DNA of 64,000 nucleotides from Euryarchaeota archaeon SM23-78 (GCA_001595785.1 LSSJ01000038.1:3020-67019); one strand, 5' to 3'; counted from the stretch's first letter, positions 5,420 through 54,156 are shown. Made by a program: numbers and translations. The notes: a model not told the origin generated them from the letters alone.

Positions 5420-5541
5420 GACTGGTTAAGAAAGTTACATTAACTCTTAAATCTTTCTAATAATAAGATACTCATTATTGGCTGGCAAACAAACTTCTCC
5501 CTTCCAAAAGGTTTATAAACTCAAAAGCCAGAGAATAAACC

Positions 5542-19927: not shown

Positions 19928-22900
19928 TTGAAAAAAATGGGTGGGTTTATGAGAATTAAAAAGGAGGTCCTCTTCTTATTCCTACCTATTATCCTGCTAG
20001 TTATAGGCTCTGGAAGTGTTGGTGCCGCTTGTGTAGGTAATAATATCTTTGATTGCTCCCAACACACCACTCAATCATCCTGTGATGCCAGTCCTTGCTG
20101 TGCATGGAATGCGGCCTGGCTTTCAGGGGTTTGTATAAAAAAGAACTGTGCAAACATTGCCTCTGGTTCATGCGGAACCTGTTGTGATCCTGGAACACGA
20201 GATAGAATTGTTTGTGGTTATCAAAACAAGCCAGATGATCATGATGAGATGGACAAATTCTATTGCTGTGAAATATCAGGGGTGACTATTGATTATGGAG
20301 ATACTCATGAAAAAGACCCTGTTAATGTAGATGATTTTGAGCATTGTGATTATGGATATGCTATGTGTGGTTTTAAAAATAGCAAGAATAATGACCAGTT
20401 AACAGCGTTTCATTGTTGTAAAATTGTTGAGCCTGTAACTCTTGGAGCGTTTCGTTTAGCTGATTCAGATCAAGACGGAGGCAGTGCTTATGGTAATTCC
20501 AATGAAGTTGCTGTTCGCGCAACCAATGACCAAAGCGTAGAAGATGGGGTTGTTGCTTTAGACACTCTTCATTTTAGGACAATTACCCGTAATGACGGAA
20601 CCCCAGTATCCATTGATACCTCTAGCAGAGTGCTCGTTGATATTGCTGTTCCTCATGATTCAAAATTTTGTGATGCTGGTAGCCCTCCCCAACCTGAAAA
20701 CACCTTTCCTTGTGATGATTGCAAAACTAATCCTTCTAAACCTGGCTGTGCTGAGTGCTGCCAGTGCGGTGATGGCACGGGTACTGGTACTCCTAGTGGG
20801 GGTGGTGGCTGCTTCCTTGCTGGCACCAAGATTACCATGAGCGGTGGTTCTTTAAAAAACATTGAGGAAATCCAAATAGGAGATGTTGTCAAGGCTTATG
20901 ACAGTGAAAACCAGCGAATGGTTGCTGGCACTGTTACCAAGTTATTCCACCATTCTCCTGATGAAATGCTGCTTTCTTATTATCTTATTATTAATAATAA
21001 TCTTAGAGTTACGCCTGAGCATAGAGTTTTTACTGATAAAGGCCTGGTCTGGGCCAAAGCCTTGGCTTTTGGCTCTGTTTTGATTGATGAGAATGGAGAA
21101 CAGATAATGGTTGCTTCAATTGAAAAAGTGTACGAAAGAGTTCCAACCTATAATTTTGAGGTTGAAGAGTATAATACTTATTTTGCAGAGGGCTTTGCTG
21201 TGCACAATGCAAAAGCAATAGGCGACTGCGGTGACGGCTGGTGTGACCCTACAGAAGACAGCGCTACTTGTTATCAAGACTGCGGACACCTAGCAATGGC
21301 AGGACCCTCTCCTTCCCTGGACTTTGATTTAGGCAGCGCAATAACTGGCTTTGTTATAAAAGATGTTTCTGACTGCCCTAACAATGATATTATTCCTCAG
21401 GAATGTAAGGATATATATACTGTTCATGCAGGTATTTGTGGATGCGGCACCAAGCCAGCTGCTTGTCATTTAAGAGACCAAACGACTTGCCAGGCAGACT
21501 CTGATTGCAGATGGTGCGAACAGCCAACAGACACCATCAATTATCCTTATGCTTTTCCAATTCTTAACAGCACTGCTGCCACTGATTCTGCTTCTTGTGT
21601 TAATATTACCTGGGATGTTTTTAATTGCGGCCAATGCGGCTTTCCAGGAGGAGGAGCGCCTGTTACCCAGAACAATAAGGGTTTTTGTCCTGCAAATAAG
21701 CCTTATTGTGTGAAAGGAGAATGTAAGAGTAAAAGCCAAGCCAAAAGCCTTGGTTGGGACCAGGTTTATATTCCTGAAGAGCTAACTGATAATGGAGATT
21801 TTAACCCTGTTTATCGTTATGATGTAAAAAGCAGTGGAGGAGCCTATTATTCCGAGTGGTATGATAATTCTGGTAATGTGGCTGGTCAAACCCTGCCCAC
21901 TTATCTTTTACATGATATTGGGTCTAATGAAAATATTTGTTCTTTAGCCACTGGCGGTAGTTATAGCTTTGACTCTGCCTATGGTTGTTGTGGTGATAAG
22001 AAATGTTATGAGAAAGGAGGCACTGTTTGTAACACTGGTGCTATTTGTGATGGTAGCCAGTGGCATATTGCTTCTAACACAAACCAGCATGGAGAAGTCT
22101 TTCTTCTTGATAATTGCGAAGTTTTATGGGATAATTATCCTGTTGCTAATGTAGAAGGCACCTTTGTAAGATGTGTTGATAAAGATAGGGAAGGAAACTA
22201 TATGGCTGGGCGTTTGATTGGTACGCCTATTTGTTCTCCATCATACCCAGACTATGAGGGACAAGGCATTGATCCAGGTATTGCAGGCTTTATGCAGTAT
22301 GCTTGCAGTGCTGGTGAATATAGTGTGGGTGGTTTTAGAGCCATGCCTGACAACACGTGTGCTGGACATGGCCAGAATGTAGGAGACCTTCAACAATCAG
22401 ATATTGATGTACATTATGTTTGTGATTTGGATGTGGTTGATGATACTGCGTTTGCTTTTGCATATATTGTGGATACAGGCGGATTAGGTGGGAATAATGT
22501 AGCACCAGGCATTATTGGACGAGAAGGTGAAGACAGAAGTGTTGTGACTTATGAGCAATGTCCTGCAGGCATTACTTCTACCTGGGCAACAGGAGAAGAT
22601 TCTATGAGCACACCAGCTATTGTGCCTTGCCCTGGAAAACTAAAGGTTAATCCTATTAGTTTTAGTAATATCTATTATTATATTGAAAAACCAACCATTC
22701 CTAGGACATGGGGTTGGTCTCTTGGAAGACAATATCCTACTGCTGGCAGAACCCTACAAATTTGTAGAGCGCCTGACCCTACAGACCCAACAGACACGCC
22801 TGGTATGCATTCATTAAGAACCATGAAATATGTGCTTGGAGATGGTAGCAGCATGGGTCGTGTTAATGATCATGAGTATGTTTGTTATACAGATGAGAGC

Positions 22901-25645: not shown

Positions 25646-25734
25646 TGAGACAAGAGAAACAGGATAAAAGAATCAGATAGAATCAGATAATTAAAAGGTG
25701 TTTTTTATGCTATTATTTTTTGAGGTGAGTGATT

Positions 25735-26595
25735 ATGAGAAAAGCTGCTTATGCTGGCTTGTTCTATCCTAAAACTATTGCTAGTCTTAGCAAGATGCTA
25801 GAAGAATGCTTTACTAATAAATTAGGACCAGGCGCTCTTCCTAGCAAGCCAAGACCAGGGGCAAAGTCACTAAAAGCAGCTATCTCTCCTCATGCAGGCT
25901 ATGTTTATAGTGGGATGGCAGCTGCCTGGAGTTATAAAGCCTTAGCAGAAGCAGAGCTTCCTGACTTGTTCATCCTCCTAGGTCCTAATCACCGCAGTAA
26001 TGAATCAGGTGTTTCATTGGAAACCTTTGAAACCCCTCTTGGCTTTGTAAGACCAGACCAGGAGTTTGGAAAAGCCCTTGTGAAAAAAGATAACATAGTA
26101 ATTAATGAAAGGATTCATGCGCATGAGCACAGCCTAGAAGTACAATTGCCTTTTTTACAATTTGCTTTTGGTACTAGAGCTGAGAAAATAAAGATTCTTC
26201 CATTACTAGTATCAGATGACCTAGACCTTGACAAAGCAGCCAAGGACTTAAAAGAAACAATTAGTGAGATGAAGAGAAAAGTCACTTTTATTGTGAGCAC
26301 TGATTTTACACATTATGGCTTTAGTTATGGTTACATGCCATTTAGTGATAATATCAAAGAAAACCTCTCAAAACTGGATAAAGGAGCCATTAACTTAATA
26401 CTAAAAGGAGATGCTCAAGGATTTGAAAAATATATTCATAAGACAGGAGCAAGCATATGCGGTTACCTACCCATAATCTTGCTCTTAAAAATCATTACCT
26501 TTGATAAAGCCTCCTTAGAGCAGTACTATACCTCAGGAGATGTTGTTGGTGATTATAGTAATAGTGTGAGTTATGCGAGCATTGTGCTTAGGTAA
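25735..26595 (+). CDS. MEMO1-family protein (AmmeMemoRadiSam system protein B)
   Basis: MRKAAYAGLFYPK...ISPHAGYVYSG...EHSLEVQLPFLQ are the family motifs. ATG 25735 lies 6 nt after GAGGTGA; the track start 25729 is a GTG. Confidence 0.85.
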   Translation: MRKAAYAGLFYPKTIASLSKMLEECFTNKLGPGALPSKPRPGAKSLKAAISPHAGYVYSGMAAAWSYKALAEAELPDLFILLGPNHRSNESGVSLETFETPLGFVRPDQEFGKALVKKDNIVINERIHAHEHSLEVQLPFLQFAFGTRAEKIKILPLLVSDDLDLDKAAKDLKETISEMKRKVTFIVSTDFTHYGFSYGYMPFSDNIKENLSKLDKGAINLILKGDAQGFEKYIHKTGASICGYLPIILLLKIITFDKASLEQYYTSGDVVGDYSNSVSYASIVLR

Positions 26596-26621: not shown

Positions 26622-26645
26622 AATTATTAAATTTAAAAAATAAAG

Positions 26646-26786
26646 GTGTTCAAAAAAAGTGCCCGCTCGGGCCTACTTATGACACCGAGGGCTCCACCTC
26701 CCCGTAGGGGGCACGTCCCCCTGTTCCGCTTTGATTATTAAACGGATATATGCCCTCGCAAATTGGCACTTACTTTTTTTGAACAC
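26646..26786 (-). ncRNA. Structured GC-rich element, copy 1 of 3 (unknown family; candidate ncRNA)
   Basis: The reverse complement aligns with 37430-37587 and 38680-38813. A 15-bp closing stem (GTGTTCAAAAAAAGT at 26646-26660 pairs with ACTTTTTTTGAACAC at 26772-26786) encloses conserved inner helices. No ORF of 60 aa or more covers it. Confidence 0.6.
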
Positions 26787-26806
26787 TATTAAAAATTACA
26801 AATAAA

Positions 26807-28702
26807 ATGAAAAAATCCCAGATAACCATGTTTGTAATCCTTGGCATGGTCTTGTTAATAGGATTTATAATTCTTACTGCTATTATACGCAACACCAGCC
26901 CCCCTAAAGGTAATATTCAGGAGATTCTTAAGCAGTTGCAAACAGGCAGTGTAAAGAACCACGTGACTACTTGCATACTACAAACATCTATGGATGGACT
27001 TGAAAGCCTGGGTGCTAATGGAGGAGTGATATATAATTTTGAGGCAGGCACCATTCCTTTTGAGGATAAAATATTAGGGAGGGATTATCTTAATTACACA
27101 TATCTTAATAAACCTTATTTTGTGGATTATGCTTTGAAAAGGAACACCCTTTGTGAGAATGTTAGTTATAAGATTCCTGATTATCCATGCCTAGACACGC
27201 CTTTTAACAGGCTTACCTTTATATATAATGAGGAGTGTTTATTCAACTCTTTCTACTCTGCTTATGACGGCTTCTTTGGTCAGAATAATATGAGCAAACT
27301 GTGCTATATTGCTCGTGAATCCACTTGCGAAGGATATGCAAAAGGCATAGAACTAGCTCTGACCTTGCAAAAACAGTTAGAGGATTATATTGCAAACACC
27401 CTGCCTTTATGTATTGACCTTTCTGCTTTTTCAAGCAGATTAGACGCTAATATAACTGTAGAAGCAGAACCTGTTGTGGAATCCACGATTCATAACTCAG
27501 ACATCCTAGTGGTTGTTAAGTACCCTGTAAAAATTAATTTTAAAGGACAAGACCCAATAACAACAGTGGTTGATTACCAAGTCAACCTTAATATTAGGCT
27601 GGGCTTGATGTATAACTTTATATATAATCTGTATTCCAGGGATTCAAAAAACATAGACTTTAATCTTAATAATGAATTTATTAGTTCTTCTTTTTGGAGG
27701 CAAGGATTAGAGCTGAAAAAGATTAATAATCCTTGCACTACTTGCCCTCGACCTTATTATCATGATGATATTGTTGAGGTGCTTGACAGGAGTTCTATGG
27801 TAAAGGGAAGGCCTTTCTTGTTCAGAACAGCTGTTGAGAATAGGAAACCTGCTCTTGACAAGCTAGAAGATGTTAATATTGACTTAAAAAACACAAACTT
27901 TGTTAATATACGTCTAAATGGTTATGACCCTGATGATACAGGGTTAACATATTATTTCTTGTCTCTTGGAAAAGGAGAAGTCCAGTGTGCTGGCGCAGGA
28001 GGCCTTCCTGCAGGAGCAGTTCCTAGTGGTGGTACTGGTTGGTGTGAGAGTGATGCAAGAGTGTCAGGGGAAAAAGGAGAGCTAGTTCACCCAGGACTTT
28101 TGTGGATGCCTATTGACAGAGTAGATATTGGTTCACATGAAGTAGGAGTCCTTGTTATAGATGATAGTGGGTTGTTTGATTATCAGTTCTTTAGGATTAA
28201 TATTACTGACTCAAGCATGAATAATCCTCCTAGTGAGCAGTGTATTGATGAGTGCATCCTAGAAGCATGCTCTGATTATGCAGGAGAAGCAGACCAATGT
28301 AAAGCTCATTGTTATCATCCTAGCTGTCAGCTAGAGCTGTGTGATGTTACTAGTATTAAGGCTTCTGGTAAGAATCCTTATAAGGACTGTTCAATGTGGT
28401 GCTTTCATGCAGCAAATGCATGTAATATCTGGTGTGATGAGCATTATGTTGGTCCAAAATGCTTTCCTCCTGGCGATAATGTGAACAAAAAAAAGTGTAG
28501 ACAATGCGCATATGGCATTATGCACTCAGGAGAAAGAGAAAAACATGTTGATTGCTCTACCATAAATTCAAAGGCTGCCTGTATTAATAACATGCCTAAT
28601 TGTTTTTGGGTGGAAGAGGAACATAATAATTTTGTAGGTGCTTGTTTTAATGATACTTCCTTAAACAATACAAAATTTCGTGCTTATATAATTACTGAAT
28701 AG
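26807..28702 (+). CDS. Cysteine-rich surface protein (631 aa) with pilin-like class III signal peptide
   Basis: The N-terminus MKKSQITMFVILGMVLLIGFIIL matches the KK[GAS]Q-hydrophobic pattern. A central Ig/cadherin-like segment follows (NGYDPDDTGLTYYF...IGSHEVGVLVIDDSGLFDYQFFRINI). The C-terminal ~120-aa Cys module is shared with the 1905-aa protein. Confidence 0.8.
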   Translation: MKKSQITMFVILGMVLLIGFIILTAIIRNTSPPKGNIQEILKQLQTGSVKNHVTTCILQTSMDGLESLGANGGVIYNFEAGTIPFEDKILGRDYLNYTYLNKPYFVDYALKRNTLCENVSYKIPDYPCLDTPFNRLTFIYNEECLFNSFYSAYDGFFGQNNMSKLCYIARESTCEGYAKGIELALTLQKQLEDYIANTLPLCIDLSAFSSRLDANITVEAEPVVESTIHNSDILVVVKYPVKINFKGQDPITTVVDYQVNLNIRLGLMYNFIYNLYSRDSKNIDFNLNNEFISSSFWRQGLELKKINNPCTTCPRPYYHDDIVEVLDRSSMVKGRPFLFRTAVENRKPALDKLEDVNIDLKNTNFVNIRLNGYDPDDTGLTYYFLSLGKGEVQCAGAGGLPAGAVPSGGTGWCESDARVSGEKGELVHPGLLWMPIDRVDIGSHEVGVLVIDDSGLFDYQFFRINITDSSMNNPPSEQCIDECILEACSDYAGEADQCKAHCYHPSCQLELCDVTSIKASGKNPYKDCSMWCFHAANACNIWCDEHYVGPKCFPPGDNVNKKKCRQCAYGIMHSGEREKHVDCSTINSKAACINNMPNCFWVEEEHNNFVGACFNDTSLNNTKFRAYIITE

Positions 28703-28852
28703 AAAATTAAAGAAAATTAAAAAAAGCAAAACTCATAAAAACGCATATATAAAAGACACACATATTAAAGCCAAAAATTAATTATCAACAATCAAAACAA
28801 AAAGATTTATATATTTACAAAAGGAAAGCAAGAATAAAAAAGGTGGATGAGT

Positions 28853-31828
28853 ATGGTTTATAAAAAGCACATGGTATTGTTAATATTTAGTATCATATTA
28901 TTCTTATTTATTCCTGCTCTTGTAAGTGCTGGCTGCTGTATTTATCAGACCCTAGGGAGCAGTTGTGAGAACAAAGCCAGTGAAGCTCAGTGCACCACAA
29001 CCCCTCAATTATTTGTAACTGATGATTGCACTGACAGACCAGAATGTGTTACTGGGTGTTGCTGTCTTTCTGATATTGGATTAATTGATGTTGGAAGCAC
29101 CAATTACTCCTGTGTTTTTACTTTTATTCCAAGCCCTTCTATTAGTCCTGGTGATAATTGCTCTTGTGCAATATCTACCTATTCTATTTCAGGAACCATC
29201 TATAGAATGACAGGAGGCTATGTGTCTGGTGCAATTGTGAGTGCCGCAAGCATATCAACCACTTCTGCTACTAACGGAGCTTATACCATAAACAATGTGC
29301 CTGAAGGAGATAGTATCACAGTGGCTGCTCATAAAACATCCGAGGGGTGTGCACCTAATAGTGTAACTATTGACCTACATCAGGACAGAACAGGCATTGA
29401 TATTAATCTTAACTGTGAGTGCACACCAGGTGTTTGTGACCCTAATAATAATGCCTATTGTTTATCAAGCAAAACATGGAAAATCTATGATTTAACCAAT
29501 ACATCACAGAAAGACGAGTACTGTCTTAGGTGTGGCTTAGATGACCCTGCTGATTGCGGAGCACCAGCAGAGTGTGTAAGTGGTGATGGAAAGTGCCCTG
29601 TAACTTGCAGCCCAAATGTTGATAGCCCCAAGTACGATTCTGATTGTGTGTGCAGCATGACTCCTAACCGGGCTTGTCCTCGTTGGTGTACCAAGGATAA
29701 TGATGCAGACTGTGCTGCTTATGCAGCTGTGTGCGGAGATGGATTAGTAACCTATCCTTATGAGACTTGTGAAGATAATCCTCAAACAGGACAACTAAGT
29801 CTGTGCAGCCCTAATGATTGCACTAACCCAGGAGAATCAGGTGAGTGTAATTGTGTTGGTTTATCAGCCTGTGGTAATTATATAATAGAATCAGGAGAAG
29901 ATTGTGAGATAGGAATGAAATGCCCAGATGGAAGTGATTGCTGGGATTGCTCCTGTGGCACGCCTCAGTGCCAGGGCAGCGCAATGAATCCTAGTGCTAC
30001 AGCAAGCTTTGATTCTAGTGCAAACGAAATTCTAGTTGAGTGGTCTGTTCTTAGCACTTGTAAAGCAAATGTGCTTTACTATTCTGTGTTTAAGTGTGAA
30101 AAAACACCGAGTTTTGATTGTTCAAGCAAAAGCATGTTTTCGCCATTCCGTCTTAACATACCTAAGTATCAATTTAATATAACAGAGAGTTCTGTTCCTT
30201 CAAATTCTGAATTCTGCTATGTGGTTAATGCTACTTATGCTGGCGGAGAAAAAGGAACGTCTAGTATTAAGTGTGTTAGCACAGGCCATCCTTATTGCAT
30301 GAATGTTCATCCTGATGAGTTCTGCATGAATAATGTGAGGAGCAAGTGTGATGCAGATGATAATATTCAGCCAATAGAGGATTGTAACCCTGACAAGTTT
30401 TGCATGGGACCAAATAGGGATGGCAAGACTTGGTGCTCAGATATAGACGTATGTGACATGTGCAATGGCCTCTACGGCATGTTCTCTAATATTGATTTAA
30501 AAGTCAATGTTTTGGAAGGAGGTGTTATAAGACCTAGGTATTGCCATCCTGGCGCAGGCAGGTATGTAGTAGAGGGTTGTTATCTTGACAGAACAAAAAC
30601 CTTGTTCAGTGCCTTTGATTACTGCTCTAATATTGTAAGTTGCTATGATTATAAATCACAAGAAGCATGTGAAGATAATGCAGATCCTTGTGGAAAAAAT
30701 CAGGATTGTGAATGGGTGTGGTTAGATAACTCTTATCATGAACTAGGAGGAATATGCAGACCTAATGCTCGTGAATTACAGACCTGTGAGCTATGTGATA
30801 ATAAGGATTATAACTGGATAACCCCTGCTTGCACCCCTGAGGTGTGTGCCTTGTTTGGAGATGAGTGCAAGTACCAAGGAATGTTTGCTAACCCAACATG
30901 CACTAAGAAATCCACGCTTGCTTGTATTGACTATACCACACAACAAGAGTGTATAGGAGGAACCGCAGTACATGTGAATGCGGTATATAATAGTAGTGGT
31001 GCCAGGACAGGAGGAACGCACCAACTCACACCTAGCAATGACAAGTTTGGACTTGGAAAATGTTATTGGCATGCAGTCAATAAATGGTGCTTAAGAAACG
31101 CTGATAATTATCCTGAGAATAACCAAGGCACCTATGGTCACGACTGTCCTCTTAATCGCAGAGATTGTGAATCAGACTTTATTAATCCTGAAACCATTAT
31201 TCTGCAATCTGGTTTTAGTCTTTACCCTGCAAATGTAAGAATAGAGTATACTGTGAATGATGATACCTTTCCTAGGAAGGACATCAAGACCTACTTTGGT
31301 TTAGTGCCTGCAGGCACACCTTGTTATCCAGACCAACTAGTTAGTGGCGGAGCCTTTCAAACCCTGGTAGAGGATGATGGAGATAACCTGCCTTATATAG
31401 TATGCTATTATTCAGAAGACTTTGCAAAAAACCTAGAACTCGTGAAGTCATTCCCTATAAATGTTGATGCAAACCCGCCAGTAATTACTATTACTTCGCC
31501 AACAGAGAGCGAGTTCAAAACAGCATCAGGCACCGTGGTGCTAAAAGGAATTACATCAATCGATACAATGAATCTGTGTACTTATACCCATGGTTCAAGC
31601 ACAAAGACCTGTATTAACACCTGCTTTTACGGACAGACGCCTTGTATAAATGAAGTAACAGGAGAATTCAACATAACAGTTAGTGTTCCTGCAAACGGGG
31701 CCTATGATGTGTTGTTTGATGCAGAAGACCGTGCAGGTAACCAGGTTGTTGGCCTGAGTCTGTTAGCTATTTATCGTAATGATACCCAGCCAAGAAAACC
31801 AATTATTATAATAGAGGGTGTACAATAA
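28853..31828 (+). CDS. Cysteine-rich secreted protein (~990 aa) with CarboxypepD_reg-like domain
   Basis: The track start is 28847, but ATG 28853 lies 6 nt after AGGTGG. Sec signal ...IPALVSA|GCC. The segment ISGTIYRMTGGYVSGAIVSA...TNGAYTINNVPEGDSITVAAHK is carboxypeptidase-regulatory-like. CGDG and CTPGVCD Cys motifs are shared with the next gene. Confidence 0.8.
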   Translation: MVYKKHMVLLIFSIILFLFIPALVSAGCCIYQTLGSSCENKASEAQCTTTPQLFVTDDCTDRPECVTGCCCLSDIGLIDVGSTNYSCVFTFIPSPSISPGDNCSCAISTYSISGTIYRMTGGYVSGAIVSAASISTTSATNGAYTINNVPEGDSITVAAHKTSEGCAPNSVTIDLHQDRTGIDINLNCECTPGVCDPNNNAYCLSSKTWKIYDLTNTSQKDEYCLRCGLDDPADCGAPAECVSGDGKCPVTCSPNVDSPKYDSDCVCSMTPNRACPRWCTKDNDADCAAYAAVCGDGLVTYPYETCEDNPQTGQLSLCSPNDCTNPGESGECNCVGLSACGNYIIESGEDCEIGMKCPDGSDCWDCSCGTPQCQGSAMNPSATASFDSSANEILVEWSVLSTCKANVLYYSVFKCEKTPSFDCSSKSMFSPFRLNIPKYQFNITESSVPSNSEFCYVVNATYAGGEKGTSSIKCVSTGHPYCMNVHPDEFCMNNVRSKCDADDNIQPIEDCNPDKFCMGPNRDGKTWCSDIDVCDMCNGLYGMFSNIDLKVNVLEGGVIRPRYCHPGAGRYVVEGCYLDRTKTLFSAFDYCSNIVSCYDYKSQEACEDNADPCGKNQDCEWVWLDNSYHELGGICRPNARELQTCELCDNKDYNWITPACTPEVCALFGDECKYQGMFANPTCTKKSTLACIDYTTQQECIGGTAVHVNAVYNSSGARTGGTHQLTPSNDKFGLGKCYWHAVNKWCLRNADNYPENNQGTYGHDCPLNRRDCESDFINPETIILQSGFSLYPANVRIEYTVNDDTFPRKDIKTYFGLVPAGTPCYPDQLVSGGAFQTLVEDDGDNLPYIVCYYSEDFAKNLELVKSFPINVDANPPVITITSPTESEFKTASGTVVLKGITSIDTMNLCTYTHGSSTKTCINTCFYGQTPCINEVTGEFNITVSVPANGAYDVLFDAEDRAGNQVVGLSLLAIYRNDTQPRKPIIIIEGVQ

Positions 31829-31862
31829 CTTTTATCCTTAATTTTGTTATGTGAGGTGTTTA

Positions 31863-34800
31863 ATGATAAAAAAGAGGTTTACCTTAATTGGAATCCTGCT
31901 CTACTTTTTGATAGGGCTGCTATTAATTCCTTTAGTTTTCTCAGTAATAAATATTGTTGTTGATCAAAACAGAGTGAAGATCACTGCAATTTATGAAGGA
32001 GATGTGGGTTTAGAAAAGGCTAACATAACTGATTTAATAGGAGACCAACTTTTTTATATATATCCTACAAATATAACTGTACAAAAAATATATCAGTCTG
32101 GTAATACAACTCTTAGATTTGGCGGCACAGGTTGTCCTCTTGGCTACTCTCCTTTAGGCATGCCCTATAGACCTTGTTTTATTTTAAACCCAGGGGATTA
32201 TACTTTCTCTGTTTCTGGTAGAACTGCTTTTGGAACTGTGAGGATTGATAATCCTGAGGAGTGTGATGGATATAATCTTAGCAATACTAATTGTAGTACT
32301 TACACAGATCCAAATACAGGAAAGCAACCCTTTGGAGGAGGAACCCTTTCTTGCTATGACTGCTCCTTTGATGTCTCAGGCTGTTTGGTGTGTGAGCCTA
32401 ATCATTGCTCTATTTGTGATAACCAGATTTGTTCTGGTAATGGAAAACAGTGGACCACGATTAATTATACTTGGATGTGCGGTCCAAAAGACAGTAATCT
32501 TGGGACTCTAGGCACAAGCTGTACTCCAGGGGTATGTGATGTTTTTGCAGGCATGGTGTGTGATTCAAATGGGTTCTGGACCAGCACAGGCTTTTGCACT
32601 TATTGCTCTGATGAGGATAGCTCTTGTTATGGTTCATGCACTCCAGGTAACTGTGATATTAGTGCTAAGGCTTTTTGTGACCAAGGCAGCTGGGTTACTC
32701 CTTTAACCAATGATTACTGTGCTGTGTGTGGCAACTATGATAGTGAGTGTCTTGGTGGTTGCTCAGGCAGTGCGTGTGATACTAAGAATAACAAGTATTG
32801 TAGTAGTGGAAGCTGGGTTTCTCCTAGCAGCCTGAATGATTATTGTCAGCGCTGTGGTCAAGTAGATGCTGATTGTGGCATTCCCATATGTATTGATGGA
32901 ACCTGTGATATTTGCAATGATGCTAAGAAGTACTGTAATAATGGGGTGTGGGAGAGTCAAAATTATTGTGATTATAGTAGGTGTGGAAGTTATGATTCTT
33001 GGTGCAATAGAAGCTGTCAACACGGCACATGTGATACTGTTGCTCATAAGTATTGTAGGTATAATCTCTGGGAATCTGACTGGGACACTTATTGTAATAA
33101 TTGTAAATCTCAAGATAGTTCTCTTTACTGCTTAAACCCAGAGGACTGTGGTAATGGAGTGATAGACAGATGGAATGTTAGTGGCTTTTGGGTTGGAGAA
33201 GCATGTGATAAAAAAGGACCTAACCTGAACGGAGCTAGCTGCCTAACCTGGCCTCAGTTTGTAGGAGGCACTCTTGGATGTGCTGATAATTGTTTGAGCT
33301 TTGACAGGAGCAGCTGCATCCTTAGGAACGAGTCTTGTGGTGATGATATTATCCAAGGAGATGATATGTGTGATGGAGATGACCTTGGAGGTAAGGATTG
33401 CACAGACCCAATCTTTAATTTTATGGGAGGCACTCTTGGATGCACCAATGATTGCAAGTATGATACTAGTAACTGCATTCCTTTTCCTGAGTGTGGTGAT
33501 GCTGTTGCTAACCAGGATTCTGAGGACTGTGATAAAGATGATTTAAGAGGAGAAACTTGTGAGTCTTTGGGTTATGCTGGTGGATCTTTAAAGTGTGATA
33601 ATGATTGTAGTTATGATAAATCTGGTTGTTATGGTGGTGTAAAGGTGTGTGGTGATGGTGTTGTTCAGAAGCCTAATGATGCTGGTTTTAATGAGCAGTG
33701 TGATATGGCTGATTTAAATAATATGGATTGTAAGGATTTTGATGGCTATACTGGTGGCACCTTGGTTTGTAATGGTGATTGTACTTATGATTACACTGGT
33801 TGCTCAGGCGGAACCTTTAAATGCAGTGATAGAGTAAAAAATCAGGAGTCAGAGGATTGTGACTATCTTGACCTAGGCGGAGAAACATGCGAATCATTGG
33901 GTTATGATAATGGTACCCTGGAATGTTTTAGTGATTGTACTTTTGATAAGTCTAGGTGCTATTTTAATCCTGGTTCAAAGGTGTGCGGGGATGGTACAGT
34001 TCAACAGCCAAATGATGCTGGTTTTAATGAGCAGTGCGATGTGGCTGACCTAGATGGTGCGAAGTGTAAGGACAAGGATGATTTTACAGGAGGCCTTCTG
34101 ACTTGTCATGGAGATTGTACTTTTAATTATGATATGTGCACAGGAGACAGCGGTGCTGTTTGTGGAAATAACATCCTAGAACCAGGTGAGCACTGTGACG
34201 GAGATGTTGAGGATGATGACTGTACATCTATTGGTAAGAAAAACTTTATTGGAGGAACCCTTAGCTGTTCAGATAACTGTGAGTTTGATACAAGTGATTG
34301 CATAGTAAACATAACTCCTCCTGTGTGTGGTGATGGAATAGTAAATGGCTATGAAGGGTGTGATGGCACTAACCTTGCAGGGCTTACCTGCGGATACTTT
34401 ACCCAGTATGTTAGTGGCACTCTTAAGTGCAATCAGAACTGCACTCTTGATTTTTCTAATTGTTTAAAACAAGGACAAACAGCTGCTCATTGCGAGAATA
34501 ATGTGACAGACGAGGACGAGACAGACCTTAACTGCGGAGGATTATCCTGCCCTGGATGTCCAAATGGTAAGAGGTGCTTGAATCATTCTGATTGTATATC
34601 AAACTATTGTTTATCAAATATATGCACAGAAGCAAGCTGCTCTGATACAATAAAAAACGGTCTTGAAACAGATGTAGATTGTGGAGCCAACTGTCCTTGT
34701 TGTGGCTTAGATATGAGTTGTAATATTAATTCTGACTGTTGCGGTCTTTTCTGCCACCCAGACACTCGCAAATGCGATGTTCCTTCATGTGATGATGGTT

Positions 34801-35750
34801 ATAAGAATGGTGAGGAAACAGATATTGATTGTGGGGATGGTTGCCCAGAAAAATGCGAAGTCGGTCAGGGTTGCGTGTCTCCTAATGATTGTAAATCAGG
34901 TTATTGCGACTTAGGGGTGTGCGCAGTTAACCCAACCCTTGACACAGACATGGACGGAATGCCTGACAAATGGGAGCTGAAATATGGCTTAGACCCTAAT
35001 AATCCTGATGATGCAAACCAAGACATGGACGGTGATGGTTATTCTAATCTTGACGAATATTTAGATGGAACAGACCCAACAGATCCAAATGACCCTCTGC
35101 CTAAGAAGAAGCACACCTTGCAAATCATTTTCTTAATAATAGGGTTGCTCTTAATGCTTGGCAGCATAGGCTTTTTGGTGTACTCAAGAATGGTGCTTGT
35201 ACCCCAGCAAAGAGCTGCTACTAGAAAAGCCCAGCCTCAAAGACCAATGCCCATGGCACAAAGAAGGCCTTTGGTAGGAAGAGGACAACCCAGACCTGGG
35301 AGAAGGATGCCTTTGGCAAGAAGAGGCTTGACCCAGAGACAGGCTTCAAGAAAGAGTTTGTTAAAAGGCTTTGAAAAAGAAGATAAGACAAAAGCACTAG
35401 GTGTTAAAAGGCCTGAAGCAAAACCTTTTGAAAAGAAACCTGTTAAACCAGTACAACCTACAAAGAAAGTAGCAAAAAAACCTGCGGCAAAACCAGCGCC
35501 TGCAGAAGAGTTTATTCCTTTATCAGAACTAGGAGCAAAGCAAAAACCAAAAGAAGAAAAAAAAGAGGCTCCTAAAAAACCTCTTGGCGGAGCATTTGAA
35601 AAACTAAGAGAATTATCAGGAGCCCAGAAGAAAAAGGATGTAAATAAAGAATCAAAACAAGCTGAGGAAGAAGCTGGAAAGGAAACTGGGAAGGAAACAG
35701 GTAAAGAGGCTAAGAAAGCAGAACCCAAAAAAGAAGAAGCTGATAAATAG
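31863..35750 (+). CDS. Repeat-rich cysteine-rich surface protein (~1295 aa) with C-terminal TM anchor and basic cytoplasmic tail
   Basis: The track start is GTG 31851, but ATG 31863 lies 4 nt after GAGGTG (MIKKRFTLIGILLYFLIGLLLIPLVFS). Domains in order: about 7 'C..C...DS.C...C.PG.CD....C....W' units, 8 CGDG-type units, 3 'NG.ETD.DCG' units, Asp-rich thrombospondin-type-3-like Ca-binding repeats, TM IIFLIIGLLLMLGSIGFLVY, and a ~190-aa K/P/R-rich tail. Confidence 0.85.
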   Translation: MIKKRFTLIGILLYFLIGLLLIPLVFSVINIVVDQNRVKITAIYEGDVGLEKANITDLIGDQLFYIYPTNITVQKIYQSGNTTLRFGGTGCPLGYSPLGMPYRPCFILNPGDYTFSVSGRTAFGTVRIDNPEECDGYNLSNTNCSTYTDPNTGKQPFGGGTLSCYDCSFDVSGCLVCEPNHCSICDNQICSGNGKQWTTINYTWMCGPKDSNLGTLGTSCTPGVCDVFAGMVCDSNGFWTSTGFCTYCSDEDSSCYGSCTPGNCDISAKAFCDQGSWVTPLTNDYCAVCGNYDSECLGGCSGSACDTKNNKYCSSGSWVSPSSLNDYCQRCGQVDADCGIPICIDGTCDICNDAKKYCNNGVWESQNYCDYSRCGSYDSWCNRSCQHGTCDTVAHKYCRYNLWESDWDTYCNNCKSQDSSLYCLNPEDCGNGVIDRWNVSGFWVGEACDKKGPNLNGASCLTWPQFVGGTLGCADNCLSFDRSSCILRNESCGDDIIQGDDMCDGDDLGGKDCTDPIFNFMGGTLGCTNDCKYDTSNCIPFPECGDAVANQDSEDCDKDDLRGETCESLGYAGGSLKCDNDCSYDKSGCYGGVKVCGDGVVQKPNDAGFNEQCDMADLNNMDCKDFDGYTGGTLVCNGDCTYDYTGCSGGTFKCSDRVKNQESEDCDYLDLGGETCESLGYDNGTLECFSDCTFDKSRCYFNPGSKVCGDGTVQQPNDAGFNEQCDVADLDGAKCKDKDDFTGGLLTCHGDCTFNYDMCTGDSGAVCGNNILEPGEHCDGDVEDDDCTSIGKKNFIGGTLSCSDNCEFDTSDCIVNITPPVCGDGIVNGYEGCDGTNLAGLTCGYFTQYVSGTLKCNQNCTLDFSNCLKQGQTAAHCENNVTDEDETDLNCGGLSCPGCPNGKRCLNHSDCISNYCLSNICTEASCSDTIKNGLETDVDCGANCPCCGLDMSCNINSDCCGLFCHPDTRKCDVPSCDDGYKNGEETDIDCGDGCPEKCEVGQGCVSPNDCKSGYCDLGVCAVNPTLDTDMDGMPDKWELKYGLDPNNPDDANQDMDGDGYSNLDEYLDGTDPTDPNDPLPKKKHTLQIIFLIIGLLLMLGSIGFLVYSRMVLVPQQRAATRKAQPQRPMPMAQRRPLVGRGQPRPGRRMPLARRGLTQRQASRKSLLKGFEKEDKTKALGVKRPEAKPFEKKPVKPVQPTKKVAKKPAAKPAPAEEFIPLSELGAKQKPKEEKKEAPKKPLGGAFEKLRELSGAQKKKDVNKESKQAEEEAGKETGKETGKEAKKAEPKKEEADK
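33147..34463 (+). repeat. Array of 8 tandem ~45-55-aa CGDG...GGTL.C..DC.(F/Y)D.S.C modules
   Basis: Units 3-4 and 5-6 are a recent two-unit duplication. For example, AATGATGCTGGTTTTAATGAGCAGTG occurs identically near 33670 and 34010. The motif resembles the 'myxococcus cysteine-rich repeat' class (CGDG....E.CD). Confidence 0.75.
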
Positions 35751-35803
35751 CTGATAAATAAGAAGCTTAAAAAGCAGAACCTAGCAACAAGGGTGAGTCA
35801 TTA

Positions 35804-36307
35804 TTGAGAAGAAAATTGAAAAGAAAAGCCCAGATGAGTCATGTCTTTACTTACTTGGTAATCATTCTTGTAGTTGGAGTAGTAGCTCTAATGGGTTATA
35901 AAGCTGTTCTGTGGCTAATAGAGACTCAGTGCAAACAGCAAAGGATTGGTTTTGAACAAAGCCTCTTAGGGTTTATAGATGAGTATTCTGATTATGGTTT
36001 TTCAGAGGAGGAAACCTTAAAGGCTCCTTGTGACGTCAGAGAGGCGTGTTTTGTAGATTCAAAGTATTATGAGGAAGGAGCAGCTGTGCCAGGGGGGATT
36101 ACTGACAAGGTTATTAAGTCTCATGTTCTGGATAAGACAGATAATATATTCATTATAACAGAATTCACAGAGCCAATGGGCTTTTCAGACAAAATAGCCT
36201 TAAAGCAAGAAGACCAACCCTATAAGTGTTTTAAGCCAAGAGTAGGAGAGTTCAAGTTCTTGTTCAAAGGTCTTGGAAGAAAAACCCAGATAGAATCTGT
36301 TGACTAA
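35804..36307 (+). CDS. Pilin-like protein (class III signal peptide), 167 aa
   Basis: TTG start 6 nt after GGGTGAG gives MRRKLKRKAQMSHVFTYLVIILVVGVVALMGY. Confidence 0.6.
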   Translation: MRRKLKRKAQMSHVFTYLVIILVVGVVALMGYKAVLWLIETQCKQQRIGFEQSLLGFIDEYSDYGFSEEETLKAPCDVREACFVDSKYYEEGAAVPGGITDKVIKSHVLDKTDNIFIITEFTEPMGFSDKIALKQEDQPYKCFKPRVGEFKFLFKGLGRKTQIESVD

Positions 36308-36342
36308 ATTAGTTTTACCTGAGCAATCTTTATGGTGATTGA

Positions 36343-37392
36343 ATGAAGAGTAAAAAAGGCTTGAATAAAAGAGGCTTTGCTGTCCAATTCAACTGGTTGT
36401 TTGTGCTTATAGGAGGAGCAGTTATTCTTGGGTTTTTTATAAGTGTAATAGTTAATTACATATATGATCAGGAAATTCAGCAAAAAACTCTTTCGATTGA
36501 TGAACTTGATCAGATGCTAAAAGTTGATTTGAGTGCTGCAGACACAGAGAAAACAAGATTCTTTCAGCACAAGATCCTTTTTTCATGTGATGAAATATCA
36601 GAATATGTTGTTGAAGGAGCCTTAAAAGGCAGGCGTTATGACTACACCGCTATTTTCTCGCCTACAGAGCTAGAACCAGGAAATCTTGTAATAATGACCA
36701 CTTCTTTTGAAGCTCCTTACAGAGTGATGCCCTTAGTCTATGTTACCAGCAAAGACATAGAGTATGTCTTTGCAGGCACCTCCACTATTATTAATCTTGT
36801 TTATAACTCTATGCCTACAAACACAACCAAGAAATTTATTTCCACCAGCATAAGTAATTATCTTAATAATAATTATGACCACACGGTTTTTGTGGTTGGA
36901 GACAACGCTGATTTGACTCCTCTTAATGACTTTAATGGTTTTGAAGACAGAGTGTACGGGGTAGTTATCACCCCAGGCATGGGAAGCTCTTTTGAGTATG
37001 GCTCACTTAGCTTTTATCACTATGAGCCTGCTGGTTTTGTTTATGATGGAACCCTTCCTTTTCTAAAACCCGAGCTAGCCCTGGGAGGAGTTATTAGTCA
37101 TGATAATGAAAGTTATAAATGCAATCTGAAAAAGGTGTTGAAAAGAATAGAGCTCCTAAGTGAGTTGTACAAGAACAGAGCAGAGTATTATGCTAAAAAG
37201 GTTCCTAGTTATTGCCGCTCGCATTACACAGGTCCAGTAACAAGTGCAGAGATTTACCTAACAAGCATTCAAACCTATGCGCAGGAAGAAGTCTCTCTTG
37301 ATAATTTTAAAAATCTTATGCTTGCAGTTAATGAGTTAAAATCTTTGAATGAGCATGTTTTAAGGGGAACAGAGTGCCCAATCATATATTGA
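36343..37392 (+). CDS. Pilin-like protein (class III signal peptide), 349 aa
   Basis: MKSKKGLNKRGFAVQFNWLFVLIGGAVILGFFI: a basic stretch, Gly, then a hydrophobic helix. Confidence 0.55.
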   Translation: MKSKKGLNKRGFAVQFNWLFVLIGGAVILGFFISVIVNYIYDQEIQQKTLSIDELDQMLKVDLSAADTEKTRFFQHKILFSCDEISEYVVEGALKGRRYDYTAIFSPTELEPGNLVIMTTSFEAPYRVMPLVYVTSKDIEYVFAGTSTIINLVYNSMPTNTTKKFISTSISNYLNNNYDHTVFVVGDNADLTPLNDFNGFEDRVYGVVITPGMGSSFEYGSLSFYHYEPAGFVYDGTLPFLKPELALGGVISHDNESYKCNLKKVLKRIELLSELYKNRAEYYAKKVPSYCRSHYTGPVTSAEIYLTSIQTYAQEEVSLDNFKNLMLAVNELKSLNEHVLRGTECPIIY

Positions 37393-37429
37393 TTAAGATT
37401 AATTAGGTTATAGGTTATATTAAGCAGAT

Positions 37430-37587
37430 GCTGTCCTAAAAACTAGTGCCAATTTGCGAGGGCATTTATCAGCTTTACAGTCAAAGCGGAACAGGGGGTT
37501 GCCCCCTACGGGGAGGTGGAGCCCTCGACATTATAAGCGTGCCCGAGCGGGCACAGAGCGAGCGAATGCGAGCGATTTTAGGACAGC
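37430..37587 (+). ncRNA. Structured GC-rich element, copy 2 of 3 (unknown family; candidate ncRNA)
   Basis: A 12-bp closing stem (GCTGTCCTAAAA at 37430-37441 pairs with TTTTAGGACAGC at 37576-37587). Inner helices: AGTGCC/GGCAC, CGAGGGC/GCCCTCG, GGGGG-TTG-CCCCC and GTGCCC-GAGC-GGGCAC. Confidence 0.6.
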
Positions 37588-37624
37588 GCCTATTAAGCAA
37601 CACAATTAAAAAAGTAGAATCAGG

Positions 37625-38116
37625 ATGAAAAAGAAAGCCCAGATACAAATGACTGAAACCATTTTTGTAGTCTTTATTATTCTAATCATAATCATGCTTG
37701 GCTTTGTGGTCTACTCAAAGTATCAGCAAGGAGTGCTTGAGAATATTATGAAGCAGAGAAGAAACGAGGAGGTTATAAAGACTGGTCAGAGGCTTAGCTC
37801 CTGGCCAGAACTAGAATGCTCTGTTGCTGGTATTACAGAGTTTGCATGTCTTGATGTTGCAAAGATTCAGGTGATTTCAGACTTTATAAATGAGAGTAAG
37901 CATAAAAGCAAGTATGGATTTAATTATTACTATGACTTACTAAAAAATTCAAAGATTACAGTAAAACAAGTCTACCCTTTTGAAGAAGAATGGGTTCTTT
38001 ATGATAATCCTGGCATAACTCAGAGAACAGACAGAGTGCCTGTTCCTGTGAATCTTTATGACCCAATAACAGAGACATATGGTTTTGGAGTCTTGGAGTT
38101 GTTGATTTATGAATAA
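37625..38116 (+). CDS. Pilin-like protein (class III signal peptide), 163 aa
   Basis: MKKKAQIQMTETIFVVFIILIIIMLGFVVY, comparable to archaeal pilins of the ...KKGQIAMELG... type. Confidence 0.6.
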   Translation: MKKKAQIQMTETIFVVFIILIIIMLGFVVYSKYQQGVLENIMKQRRNEEVIKTGQRLSSWPELECSVAGITEFACLDVAKIQVISDFINESKHKSKYGFNYYYDLLKNSKITVKQVYPFEEEWVLYDNPGITQRTDRVPVPVNLYDPITETYGFGVLELLIYE

Positions 38117-38636
38117 TAACATAGATGATATGCATAATATGAATACAAAGAGGAAAAGAATGCTTAGGAAAAAGGCTCAGCTAGAGATGATTGGCTTGAT
38201 GATGATAGTAATCATTGTAATAGTGGGCCTCTTAATCTTCCTGGTATATAAACTTACTACTCCGACGCAGAATGTTCAGAAGAGATACATAGACAAGGAG
38301 ATAGCAACCAACATGCTAATAACCCTGACCAACACCCATGTCAAGGAGTGCCATGACCGCAGATTATCAGAGCTCATAGTGGACTGTGTAAAATCATACT
38401 CTGCCATGTGCGGAGACCAGACTCCTTGTGAAGTAGCTAACAAGACCATATTCACTATTCTTAACAACACCCTTGTAGAGTGGGATATAAGCTTTAACCT
38501 TTCAATAAAACGCACAGATATTACTTTTTCAAACCTTGGGTGTGGTCCGCATGCAAAAGCAAAGGAAAGAGGTTTTGAAATAATCCCCTTAAACCCAGGC
38601 TATGTTGAGATGATATTGGATATATGTGGAAAGTGA
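38109..38636 (+). CDS. Pilin-like protein (class III signal peptide), 175 aa
   Basis: ...RMLRKKAQLEMIGLMMIVIIVIVGLLIFLVY. There is an 8-nt overlap with the previous gene. Confidence 0.6.
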   Translation: MNNNIDDMHNMNTKRKRMLRKKAQLEMIGLMMIVIIVIVGLLIFLVYKLTTPTQNVQKRYIDKEIATNMLITLTNTHVKECHDRRLSELIVDCVKSYSAMCGDQTPCEVANKTIFTILNNTLVEWDISFNLSIKRTDITFSNLGCGPHAKAKERGFEIIPLNPGYVEMILDICGK

Positions 38637-38679
38637 GAGTTTTTTTCTTAGAGCAAAGATTAGTATTCTTATTTGTGGA

Positions 38680-38813
38680 GCAAGGGTGGTGGTTGCCATT
38701 TGTTGCGAGGGCATACATCAACTTTACACTCAAAGCAGAAGAGGGGGTTGGCCCCTTCGGGGAGCTGGAGCCTTCGGAAAAATAAGTGGGCCCGAGCCTG
38801 GCAACCCCCTTGC
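38680..38813 (+). ncRNA. Structured GC-rich element, copy 3 of 3 (unknown family; candidate ncRNA)
   Basis: Closing stem GCAAGGG..GGTTGCCA / TGGCAACCCCCTTGC. Inner helix CGAGGGC/GCCTTCG has one G-U pair, which is valid only for a plus-sense RNA. The CCCC-TTCG-GGGG tetraloop hairpin is present. Confidence 0.6.
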
Positions 38814-38825
38814 GAAGCAAGAACT

Positions 38826-39536
38826 TTAATCTAATTTAACTTCATCAAATCTATAAAGAACTCTTTTTTTTGGATCATAAGTAGCATTATAATATCTACC
38901 TAACTTTTTTGGGCTCTCCTGTGGTAGAAGCCTTTTTTGCCAGATATATATTTCTGGTTTAAACACAGGCCCTGGATACACGATTAATCTGAATTTATCT
39001 TTTTTTACCAAAGTCTTTGGAAAATCTATTAAGTGCTCTCGAATTATGTGCCCTACAGCAATTTCTTCTAGCATGAAATCAATGTTTGCTTGACAGGGTT
39101 CTCTTTCTCCTAATGCTTCAAGGAGATATTTTTTGAAATCTTTGTTTTTTTTGTAAAGCTTATACAAGGCTTCAAAAAAAGGCTGAAAACAGTCAGAGTT
39201 TAGAATAATGTAATCAAAAGGCAGGAAATGAAATGCGCCTGGCATATAAGTTCCCTTTTTCAAGATTAACCTTTTTAGAGCGTTTCTATGTGCAAGCATT
39301 TGCTGGGTTGTTCTTTTCCTGACAGTATAAGCAAATTCTTTTGTATTAAAATAAAGCCCGTTTGTGTAAAGAAAAACAACATCATTGCCAGGAATATTAA
39401 TTTTATCGTCCAGAACAGCCATGTATTCCATGCATTTCTCTGGGCTTTGATCTCCTTGCAATCTACTCATGGAAAGAGGAAAGATAACATATCCATCTGT
39501 TGGAAGCTTATTTATATCCTTGCCTTTAAGAGTCAT
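38826..39536 (-). CDS. Hypothetical protein; candidate tRNA-dependent cyclodipeptide synthase (CDPS)-like enzyme
   Basis: 236 aa. By-eye alignment to remembered AlbC/YvmC gives Ser22 (VIFPLSMS vs GISxxNS), AVGHIIRE (vs AVEYVIAE) and LIVYPGP (vs LLAYHRP). Spacings are Ser-to-Glu 145 and Glu-to-Tyr 20, as in AlbC. Not verified by HMM. Confidence 0.4.
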   Translation of the reverse strand: MTLKGKDINKLPTDGYVIFPLSMSRLQGDQSPEKCMEYMAVLDDKINIPGNDVVFLYTNGLYFNTKEFAYTVRKRTTQQMLAHRNALKRLILKKGTYMPGAFHFLPFDYIILNSDCFQPFFEALYKLYKKNKDFKKYLLEALGEREPCQANIDFMLEEIAVGHIIREHLIDFPKTLVKKDKFRLIVYPGPVFKPEIYIWQKRLLPQESPKKLGRYYNATYDPKKRVLYRFDEVKLD

Positions 39537-39548
39537 GTTGATTTCTCC

Positions 39549-54117: not shown

Positions 54118-54156
54118 ATAAAATAAATAACAAAGATAATATAAAAGAGGTTTTTT

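Follow-up and report, generated by a model that had tools for sequence, protein, structure and literature searches.

The window analysed here, a stretch of 64,000 nucleotides from Euryarchaeota archaeon SM23-78 (GCA_001595785.1, LSSJ01000038.1:3020-67019), contains between positions 26,646 and 38,813 a set of genes for pilin-like and giant cysteine-rich proteins, interspersed with copies of a structured repeat element. An initial annotation had read the two together, as a cassette bracketed by inverted copies of the element that might have been acquired or might be invertible. Comparison with related genomes favours a different reading, to which we assign a probability of roughly 0.55: two unrelated features are superimposed, namely an inherited gene cluster that probably specifies an attachment structure, and a dispersed repeat that probably resembles a miniature transposable element with inverted repeats (MITE).

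The gene cluster and its conservation

The initial annotation had described seven genes on one strand with a further giant gene upstream, and the listing of open reading frames (ORFs) bears this out. The genes, with the Memo gene that lies among them, are as follows:

19928..25645, plus strand: 1905-aa giant protein with a Sec signal (N-terminal signal peptide), 5.9% Cys, with a Hint module
25729..26595, plus strand: Memo/AmmeMemoRadiSam-B gene (Pfam Memo, E=1e-63; synteny)
26807..28702, plus strand: 631-aa pilin-like protein, N-terminus KKS-QITMFVILG...
28847..31828, plus strand: 993-aa Sec-secreted protein, 8.1% Cys
31851..35750, plus strand: 1299-aa Cys-rich anchored protein; likely start at ATG 31863 (MIKKRF...), giving 1295 aa
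35804..36307, plus strand: s1, small pilin-like protein, 167 aa, N-terminus RKA-QMSHVFTY...
36343..37392, plus strand: s2, pilin-like protein, 349 aa, N-terminus KRG-FAVQFNWLFVLIGG, with a G/F-type site
37625..38116, plus strand: s3, small pilin-like protein, 163 aa, N-terminus KKA-QIQMTETIFVVF
38109..38636, plus strand: s4, small pilin-like protein, 175 aa, 6 Cys, N-terminus KKA-QLEMIGL...

The last 8 nt of s3 are also the first 8 of s4. The Memo gene is a conserved housekeeping neighbour that directly precedes the cluster in all relatives.

For the 631-aa protein there are 34 homologues (38-56% identity); homologues are labelled Woesearchaeota or Nanoarchaeota in their source records. Genomic context was compared for six loci that carry a homologue of the 631-aa protein (L001, L003, L005, L019, L020 and L021) and for one locus with a homologue of s3 (L022). 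The common order is MCM(-), TBP(-), a gene of ~226 aa, ThiI/THUMP, an optional giant, Memo, the 631-aa family, a protein of ~997 aa and a variable large protein. In L001, L003, L019, L020 and L021 four small genes come next (~171, 360, 170 and 170 aa) and then YjbQ(-), which is followed by an ABC transporter in all four loci that are long enough (L001, L003, L019 and L020); L005 stops within the variable large gene, and L022 matches the synteny in part. The five pilin-like proteins and the giant Cys-rich proteins are kept together across these relatives, as the initial annotation had supposed. Counterparts of the 1905-aa protein, 1337-1529 aa long, occur in L001, L003, L005, L020 and L021; since such a gene is missing in L019, the upstream giant is a variable accessory member.

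At least six relatives hold the cluster at the same chromosomal position between the same housekeeping flanks, and all of them are without the element. This shared position, together with a composition of the region that is not atypical, excludes a recently acquired cassette. Judged by synteny, the gene set is a vertically inherited, lineage-wide cluster of the Woesearchaeota type and not an acquired one.

All five pilin-like families begin with a variable leader, followed by [K/R][A/G/S] plus Q or F and then by a highly conserved helix; the cleavage-site-like motif with the following helix is the best-conserved segment of each family. In the 631-aa family, KK[A/S/T]QITxFVIxGLxLL is near-invariant behind leaders of 4 to ~36 residues. 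The six-genome alignments give [K/R]-A-Q-[I/V/M]-S-x-V-F-x-Y for s1 (with Q10, S12, V14, F15 and Y17 invariant), [K/R]-[K/R]-G-F-x-x-Q-F-x-W-x-F-V-L-I for s2 (invariant G11, F12, Q15, F16 and W18) and K-A-Q-L-E-M-I-G-L for s4; the s3 motif is K-K-A-Q-x-Q-M-T-E-T-I-F-V. When a regular expression for the layout was applied to every window ORF, it matched four of the five pilin-like proteins and one multi-pass membrane protein, a false positive; s3 was missed solely because of its conserved Glu. In their primary structure, the five N-termini match the layout of a class III (type IV pilin) signal, in line with the pilin-type signals proposed initially, and they do so across genomes. The s3 and s4 families are probable paralogues by profile comparison (hhalign 82%, E=1e-5), and the N-terminal modules of s1 and s4 align in register (hhalign). 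A weak match to DUF7288 was found for s4 (Pfam).

The s3 family is large, with 1,174 representative clusters at E<=1e-3, and its diverse members retain [K/R]-[A/S]-Q-[I/M]-x-M-x-E-T, including the Glu a few residues into the helix. An AlphaFold 2 (AF2) model of s3, based on an alignment of 30 sequences (mean confidence score, pLDDT, 85), consists of an N-terminal helix of 57 residues (2-58) and an alpha/beta head whose sheet has four strands. The AF2 model of the 631-aa protein (pLDDT 74) has a helix at 5-30, a globular region, sandwiches of the Ig/cadherin kind and, at the C-terminus, a module rich in Cys; Foldseek matched it in the PDB only to generic sandwiches of the cadherin/SraP (adhesin) type. 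The 631-aa protein is predicted to be a large pilin-like subunit or a tip adhesin.

The giants contain 5.9% (1905 aa), 8.1% (993 aa) and 9.1% (1299 aa) Cys, compared with 1.1% in housekeeping proteins. The 993-aa family is uniform: in all relatives it keeps a length of 981-1015 aa, a Cys content of 8.1-8.2% and a GCC... start after the Sec signal; the window protein has a weak CarboxypepD_reg match (Pfam). The 1299-aa protein has a Sec-type N-terminus, Cys repeats of the CGDG type (DUF4215-like) and TSP3-like Asp-rich repeats, and ends, in the window copy, in a C-terminal transmembrane (TM) helix that is followed by a Lys-rich cytoplasmic tail. Across genomes the ectodomain of this family ranges from 540 to 1953 aa, and the tail motif FIPLS.LG...F.KLK.LS is conserved; the counterparts in L003 and L020 match DUF4215 weakly.

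Strains differ here as well: an extra in-frame segment of 54 nt (18 aa, of the KEDFTVDLTPCDNDGIVEPP type) is present at 32251/32252 in L017, L018 and L031, three of the five strain-level assemblies (the window, L017, L018, L031 and L032, of which two besides the window are from ENA and two from JGI), whereas the L032 assembly stops short of this site. The indel makes the length of the Cys-rich ectodomain variable at the level of strains.

The Hint domain that had been assigned to the 1905-aa protein was confirmed at aa 292-427 (nt 20801-21208), with matches to Pfam PT-HINT (E=3.5e-11) and Hint (E=6.7e-8) and to an NCBIfam intein C-terminal region (splicing motif). The L021 counterpart has the module too; among the precomputed Pfam tags for the remaining relatives it was not detected. 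In this secreted protein it may be an autoprocessing domain.

The conserved class III-like N-termini and the co-conserved giants make a role in attachment or in a surface filament reasonable, and we regard the cluster as probably encoding an attachment structure. The leaders would be cut before Gln or Phe by a prepilin peptidase encoded elsewhere, upon which the conserved hydrophobic helices could assemble into a short pilus, a pseudopilus or a tip complex, driven by an ATPase and a platform of the type IV pilus kind that are encoded in trans. Such a structure might display the Cys-rich giants or act jointly with them, and these, along with the 631-aa subunit, would supply the adhesion, to other cells or to a surface. 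Pili-mediated attachment has been described in organisms of the DPANN and of the candidate phyla radiation (CPR) (PMC9938205). The attachment apparatus proposed in the initial annotation is plausible and now has comparative evidence behind it in the conserved N-termini and co-conserved giants; the accompanying statement that it matches no characterised system was too strong, as it falls within a known kind of system (PMC4858521).

The survey for assembly genes covered ~84 kb. Within the window there are 51 independent ORFs with a length of 110 aa or more, and Pfam scans were made for 48 of them (all but 5475-5873(-), 39288-39623(+) and the 133-aa ORF 8288-8689(-), whose counterpart in L028 bears an HTH_45 tag); the 10 kb beyond each window end were reached via the window-edge genes, and there the precomputed Pfam tags of the called genes were used. 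No T2SSE-type ATPase, TadC/FlaJ platform or A24 peptidase was found among the scanned window ORFs, as had been noted initially, and no prepilin peptidase, PilB-like ATPase or TadC/FlaJ among the tags of the flanks.

Several results weigh against a pilus. The pilin families of Pfam and NCBIfam gave no match, even when the N-termini were tested at E<=10, and neither did curated pilin models with diverse members of the s3 family; PDB profile searches with s1-s4 matched no solved pilin; and in a Foldseek search of the PDB with the s3 model no significant pilin was obtained, the best match (E = 6e-3) being an unrelated domain. In four of the five families residue -1 is Ala or Ser where Gly would be canonical, and no candidate for a major pilin was identified in the ~84 kb. 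These same observations, namely the lack of a match to any curated pilin model or solved structure, the Ala or Ser at the predicted -1 position and a window without peptidase or ATPase, would be in line with helices that are uncleaved signal anchors, in which case the five proteins and the giants would form a membrane-anchored envelope or S-layer-like complex, not a filament; the TM anchor and conserved cytoplasmic tail of the 1299-aa protein are envelope-like too. On the other hand, generic anchors do not preserve a near-invariant motif directly behind a leader of 4 to ~36 or more residues, no other part of each family is conserved as well as the helix, the s3 model has the lollipop architecture of pilins, and the Glu near the start of the s3 helix is conserved in diverse members. 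We consider an anchored envelope complex the main rival, though clearly less probable than an attachment structure built from pilin-like subunits.

The repeat element

The element is real: the window has three copies, ~77% identical, each with a stable fold and an inverted repeat of its own at the flanks, and a 34-nt pattern from the core occurs three times where zero occurrences are expected. Copy 1 is opposite in orientation to copies 2 and 3, as described initially. A covariance model built from these three copies retrieved a fourth, ~7.5 kb past the 3' end of the window:

26641..26791 (core 26655-26775), minus strand: element copy 1, covariance model 137.8 bits
37430..37587 (core 37445-37555), plus strand: element copy 2, covariance model 137.3 bits
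38680..38813 (core 38690-38812), plus strand: element copy 3, covariance model 124.9 bits, the most diverged of the three in the window
L024 17779-17929 (outside the window), minus strand: element copy 4, covariance model 60.6 bits, E ~5e-17

The element is ~125-185 nt long, with a conserved core of ~105 nt, and its GC content is 53-57% in a genome of 38% GC. Invariant blocks of the core include UUGCGAGGGCAU, UCAAAGC, AGGGGG, CCCCU-N-CGGGGA and GGAGCC. The core is closed by the helix GUGCC/GGCAC, in which the changes in copies 3 and 4 keep the pairing. Beyond the core lies a terminal stem of 13, 12, 7+7 or 7 perfect Watson-Crick pairs, the sequence of which differs between the copies; only the stems of copies 1 and 2 can be aligned, with changes that are mirrored on both strands. 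Over the four copies, all 46 outer-stem pairs are Watson-Crick, without a G-U. The hairpin loops UACG, UACG, UUCG and UCCG are always UNCG with a closing C-G pair, and in 4/4 copies the RNA-sense strand folds better than its complement.

Copy 1 has a perfect outer stem of 13 bp (GTGTTCAAAAAAA/TTTTTTTGAACAC) and a 20-nt flanking inverted repeat; its minimum free energy is -60.5 kcal/mol (z = -4.6) and a T7 run follows it. The outer stem of copy 2 is a perfect 12 bp (GCTGTCCTAAAA/TTTTAGGACAGC, inverted repeat 12/12), with an additional 3' hairpin of 21 nt and a fold of -68.2 kcal/mol (z = -3.7). This copy is also framed by a perfect and symmetric 9-nt direct repeat, TATTAAGCA, at 37418-37426 and 37591-37599 (P ~0.0065 per site, ~0.03 for four copies). 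Copy 3 has the stems GCAAGGG/CCCTTGC and GGTTGCC/GGCAACC and a UUCG loop. Copy 4 carries a 27-nt insertion between outer stem and core, with a partial duplicate of a core motif (TTTGCGTAGCGAGGGTG vs TTTGCGAGGGCAT).

Copy 4 is located, in sense orientation, between two genes of a BatA/VWA/MoxR/DUF58 operon. One Logan contig ends within this copy, and another runs exactly from within copy 2 to within copy 3; such contig ends inside the copies are the behaviour of a multi-copy repeat. Given the copy in an unrelated operon and these contig breaks, the element is dispersed. The initial annotation had suggested that the element copies could mark a cassette, but they do not define it: the relatives' clusters are without the element, one copy is found elsewhere, and the clustering of three copies within 12 kb of the 64 kb is not significant (P ~0.1 by our estimate). 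Copy 2, moreover, lies within the gene set, between genes 5 and 6 (s2 and s3), so that a cassette would be interrupted as well as flanked.

Outside this species the element was not encountered. With the covariance model, none was detected in the loci of nine relatives, where the spacers at the sites of the copies are only 12-102 nt long. Rfam 15 gave no match over the window at gathering thresholds and only chance-level matches at E<=10, sensitive single-copy runs included. Exact-pattern scans, which need identity at 21-25 positions and would miss diverged homologues, returned nine matches in GTDB representative genomes, all in high-GC bacteria and with poor model scores (~seven are expected by chance according to our own estimate), one chance match of 64% GC in JGI metagenomes and none in IMG/VR. 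Only spurious ORFs overlap the copies; a cluster look-up with these gave this species alone, and a profile search with translated copies gave the window's two ORFs alone. The element is apparently species-restricted, and was found here only in this species.

We rate a MITE-like insertion, whose transcript would fold into a long hairpin, as the most likely nature of the element, and it is probably of this kind: it is multi-copy (four in ~84 kb), non-coding, intergenic and absent from the orthologous loci of relatives. Several observations fit this reading poorly. The terminal repeats are not shared between copies, unlike the terminal inverted repeats of classical MITEs. A target-site duplication is convincing at copy 2 only; copy 1 shows just a low-complexity 7-mer, and nothing of the kind flanks copies 3 and 4. 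The survey of ~84 kb (Pfam of window ORFs, precomputed tags of the flanks) brought up no transposase. Two mutually exclusive pairings of the core fit about equally well and four copies as similar as these cannot separate them: model A pairs 84% of the cells, with 126/500 shuffles as good, and model B, which was derived from the same alignment, 95%, with 19/500 shuffles as good. Covariation in the core fold over the four copies is not significant. Insertion into pre-existing palindromes was ruled out, since the window has no empty palindrome of at least 12 bp and the stems were therefore not pre-existing insertion targets. The element was also compared with the features of 5S rRNA, H/ACA and C/D box RNAs, circular RNA flanked by bulge-helix-bulge (BHB) motifs, template and variable repeats of diversity-generating retroelements (DGR), integron attC sites and origin recognition boxes (ORB), all of which were rejected; the reasons jointly were the lack of an Rfam signal, missing boxes, the wrong bulge geometry, differences beyond adenines, conservation of the core and not the ends, and copies that are 10 kb apart.

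Because the core and not the ends are conserved, and because of its RNA-specific features, a family of small RNAs is a serious rival. The copies would then be independent paralogous genes of a new structured non-coding RNA family with a variable closing helix, not mobile DNA, and their position beside the cluster would be incidental or mildly regulatory, e.g. as 3'-end stabilisers or terminators. The tetraloops that vary at the N alone, the better folding of the sense strand in all four copies, the mirrored changes in the terminal stems and one compensatory change from C-G to G-C in the hairpin all agree with this, as do the GC content of the copies, the T7 run after copy 1 and the fact that copies which are 15-25% diverged are nevertheless intact and 100% conserved among strains. 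However, three of the four copies are sense-oriented in operon spacers that offer no obvious space for a promoter of their own, and since none of the relatives examined has the element, it cannot be an essential RNA. The 46 Watson-Crick pairs would fit a DNA palindrome equally well, and copy 2 has its 9-nt direct repeat. The independent RNA genes that had been suggested as an alternative are thus viable, if rather less probable than a MITE-like insertion.

Improbable, in our view, is a role as cis-regulatory RNA of this operon (attenuator, processing site or insulator) that would set the stoichiometry of the pilin-like proteins. Copy 2 lies in sense orientation 38 nt upstream of the s3 start, copy 3 at the 3' end of the operon, and copy 1 occupies the gap ahead of the first gene; the core, with its two alternative pairings, might serve as a switch. 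Yet the relatives manage their clusters without the element and with short spacers, copy 1 is antisense to the operon, and copy 4 belongs to an unrelated operon. A cluster-specific role is unlikely, and the MITE-like element would have no specific functional tie to the pilin-like genes.

That the inverted copies delimit an acquired or invertible cassette, in which recombination of copy 1 with copy 2 or 3 would flip the surface genes for phase or antigenic variation, is largely refuted and very improbable: copies 1 and 2 are indeed inverted, 85% identical over 120 nt and 10.7 kb apart, and genes for surface proteins are a typical target of phase variation, but the five independent strain-level assemblies are collinear and share one orientation (every element copy covered being 100% identical to the window copy), no recombinase or integrase was found among the scanned window ORFs, and a flip would part the genes from any upstream promoter with none supplied at the other end, in addition to the conserved position in element-free relatives, the unremarkable composition and the location of copy 4.

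Neighbouring genes

The window (~38% GC) is archaeal; besides PolD DP2, MCM and TBP it encodes a NiFe hydrogenase, pyruvate:ferredoxin oxidoreductase (POR) and Pta/Ack. The Pta/Ack pair at 53137-55332 is of the bacterial type, an acetate pathway that has been reported from Woesearchaeota and Pacearchaeota (PMC8204110), and is consistent with the taxonomic placement. The TPP-binding subunit of POR, at 56238-58268 (-), is split by an intein with a LAGLIDADG homing-endonuclease domain. The TBP ORF at 16539-17483 (-) is 314 aa long, and two assemblies of this species have it at 314 and at 292 aa; the 232-255 aa of relatives suggest that its N-terminus is extended or that its start was called wrongly. 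ARAGORN detected neither tRNA nor tmRNA genes in the window.

The spacer between s4 and YjbQ (window 38637-39536) is a variable hot spot among relatives. In the window it holds element copy 3 and an unannotatable gene of 236 aa; in L022 it has, besides the 236-aa gene, a ParE toxin and genes of 62 and 1064 aa, in L003 a tRNA-binding-domain gene, in L020 a PHP gene, and in L001 nothing. The 236-aa gene beside copy 3, tested as a possible recombinase or transposase, had zero matches in any search run.

Downstream of the cluster, at a distance of 4.6 kb, a 625-aa protein (43240-45117) combines GILT, DsbA and thioredoxin-like domains, which makes it a candidate for the enzyme that forms disulfides in the Cys-rich proteins. 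At the matching position, L022 has a gene with DUF2341, a PilY-associated adhesin domain, instead. Finally, Orc1/Cdc6, PolD DP1 and PolD DP2 are consecutive after an intergenic region of 590 nt (L027 6726-7314), ~3 kb upstream of window position 1. This region is probably a replication origin, so that the window would begin beside oriC; the element covariance model had no match there.

Relation to known systems

DPANN archaea are thought to be host-attached, and their attachment molecules are largely unknown, so seven genes that are syntenic across the lineage, with their motifs and family alignments made explicit, offer concrete attachment candidates, freed of the misleading view of a mobile or invertible cassette. 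The repeat, for its part, is a rare structured dispersed element in a streamlined archaeal genome and in practice makes assemblies break; should it be transcribed, it might represent a new RNA family. In a bolder and still tentative reading, which we find doubtful as it stands, the cluster would be the conserved organelle for attachment to hosts or surfaces in a large Woesearchaeota/Nanoarchaeota clade (s3 alone counts ~1,200 representative clusters), with pilins diverged beyond recognition by current models, and would be the DPANN counterpart of the type IV pili that drive episymbiosis in Saccharibacteria; separately, the element could be a new class of structured RNA with a conserved core that switches between two folds.

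Like MITEs and other intergenic repeats (ERIC/RU-1, Correia, REP/BIME), the element is non-coding, 125-185 nt long, multi-copy and found in short spacers in either orientation; it forms a long hairpin, breaks short-read assemblies and has one copy with a 9-nt direct repeat. In a classical MITE the termini are conserved, whereas here this is reversed, the core being conserved and the terminal repeats not. We know of no cognate transposase. The element further differs from these repeats in the RNA-specific features of its core (UNCG tetraloop, strand-asymmetric fold) and in its occurrence in one species so far.

The likeness to bacterial minor-pilin/PilY1 tip complexes (FimU-PilVWX-PilY1; GspHIJK) that was pointed out initially lies in about four small, unequal pilin-like proteins that are encoded with a large adhesin, non-pilin or pilin-like, in one operon without the machinery. 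The giants of the cluster lack the beta-propeller of PilY1, a vWA and a DUF2341 domain (Pfam), neither sequence nor fold matched PilY1, GspK or PilX, and the organism is an archaeon, without an outer membrane. The resemblance is one of gene count and arrangement, an analogy only.

Closer parallels are found among the archaea. No paper was found on this specific cluster; type IV pilus loci that encode several minor-pilin-like proteins next to large, Cys-rich proteins of the adhesin or S-layer-like kind, while their ATPase and TadC lie elsewhere, were described in an archaeal census that could not identify cognate pilins for the nanoarchaeal ATPases (Makarova et al. 2016; PMC4858521). With such systems (the Epd pili of Methanococcus, the clade 4 loci of the Thermoproteales) the cluster shares the adjacent genes with class III-like signals (PMC4858521), the co-encoded large secreted or anchored proteins with many conserved cysteines, and a pilin locus that can be apart from the ATPase/TadC locus. 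The Gln at +1 resembles that of euryarchaeal pilins of the DUF361 type. The cluster is distinguished from these systems by proteins that match no arCOG-derived, Pfam or NCBIfam pilin model, and by a residue -1 that is mostly Ala or Ser. Also particular to the cluster are a 631-aa pilin-like protein with Ig-like and Cys-rich domains, giants whose CGDG repeats resemble DUF4215 and which, in some genomes, have a Hint module in place of DUF2341, and a lineage that belongs to the DPANN.

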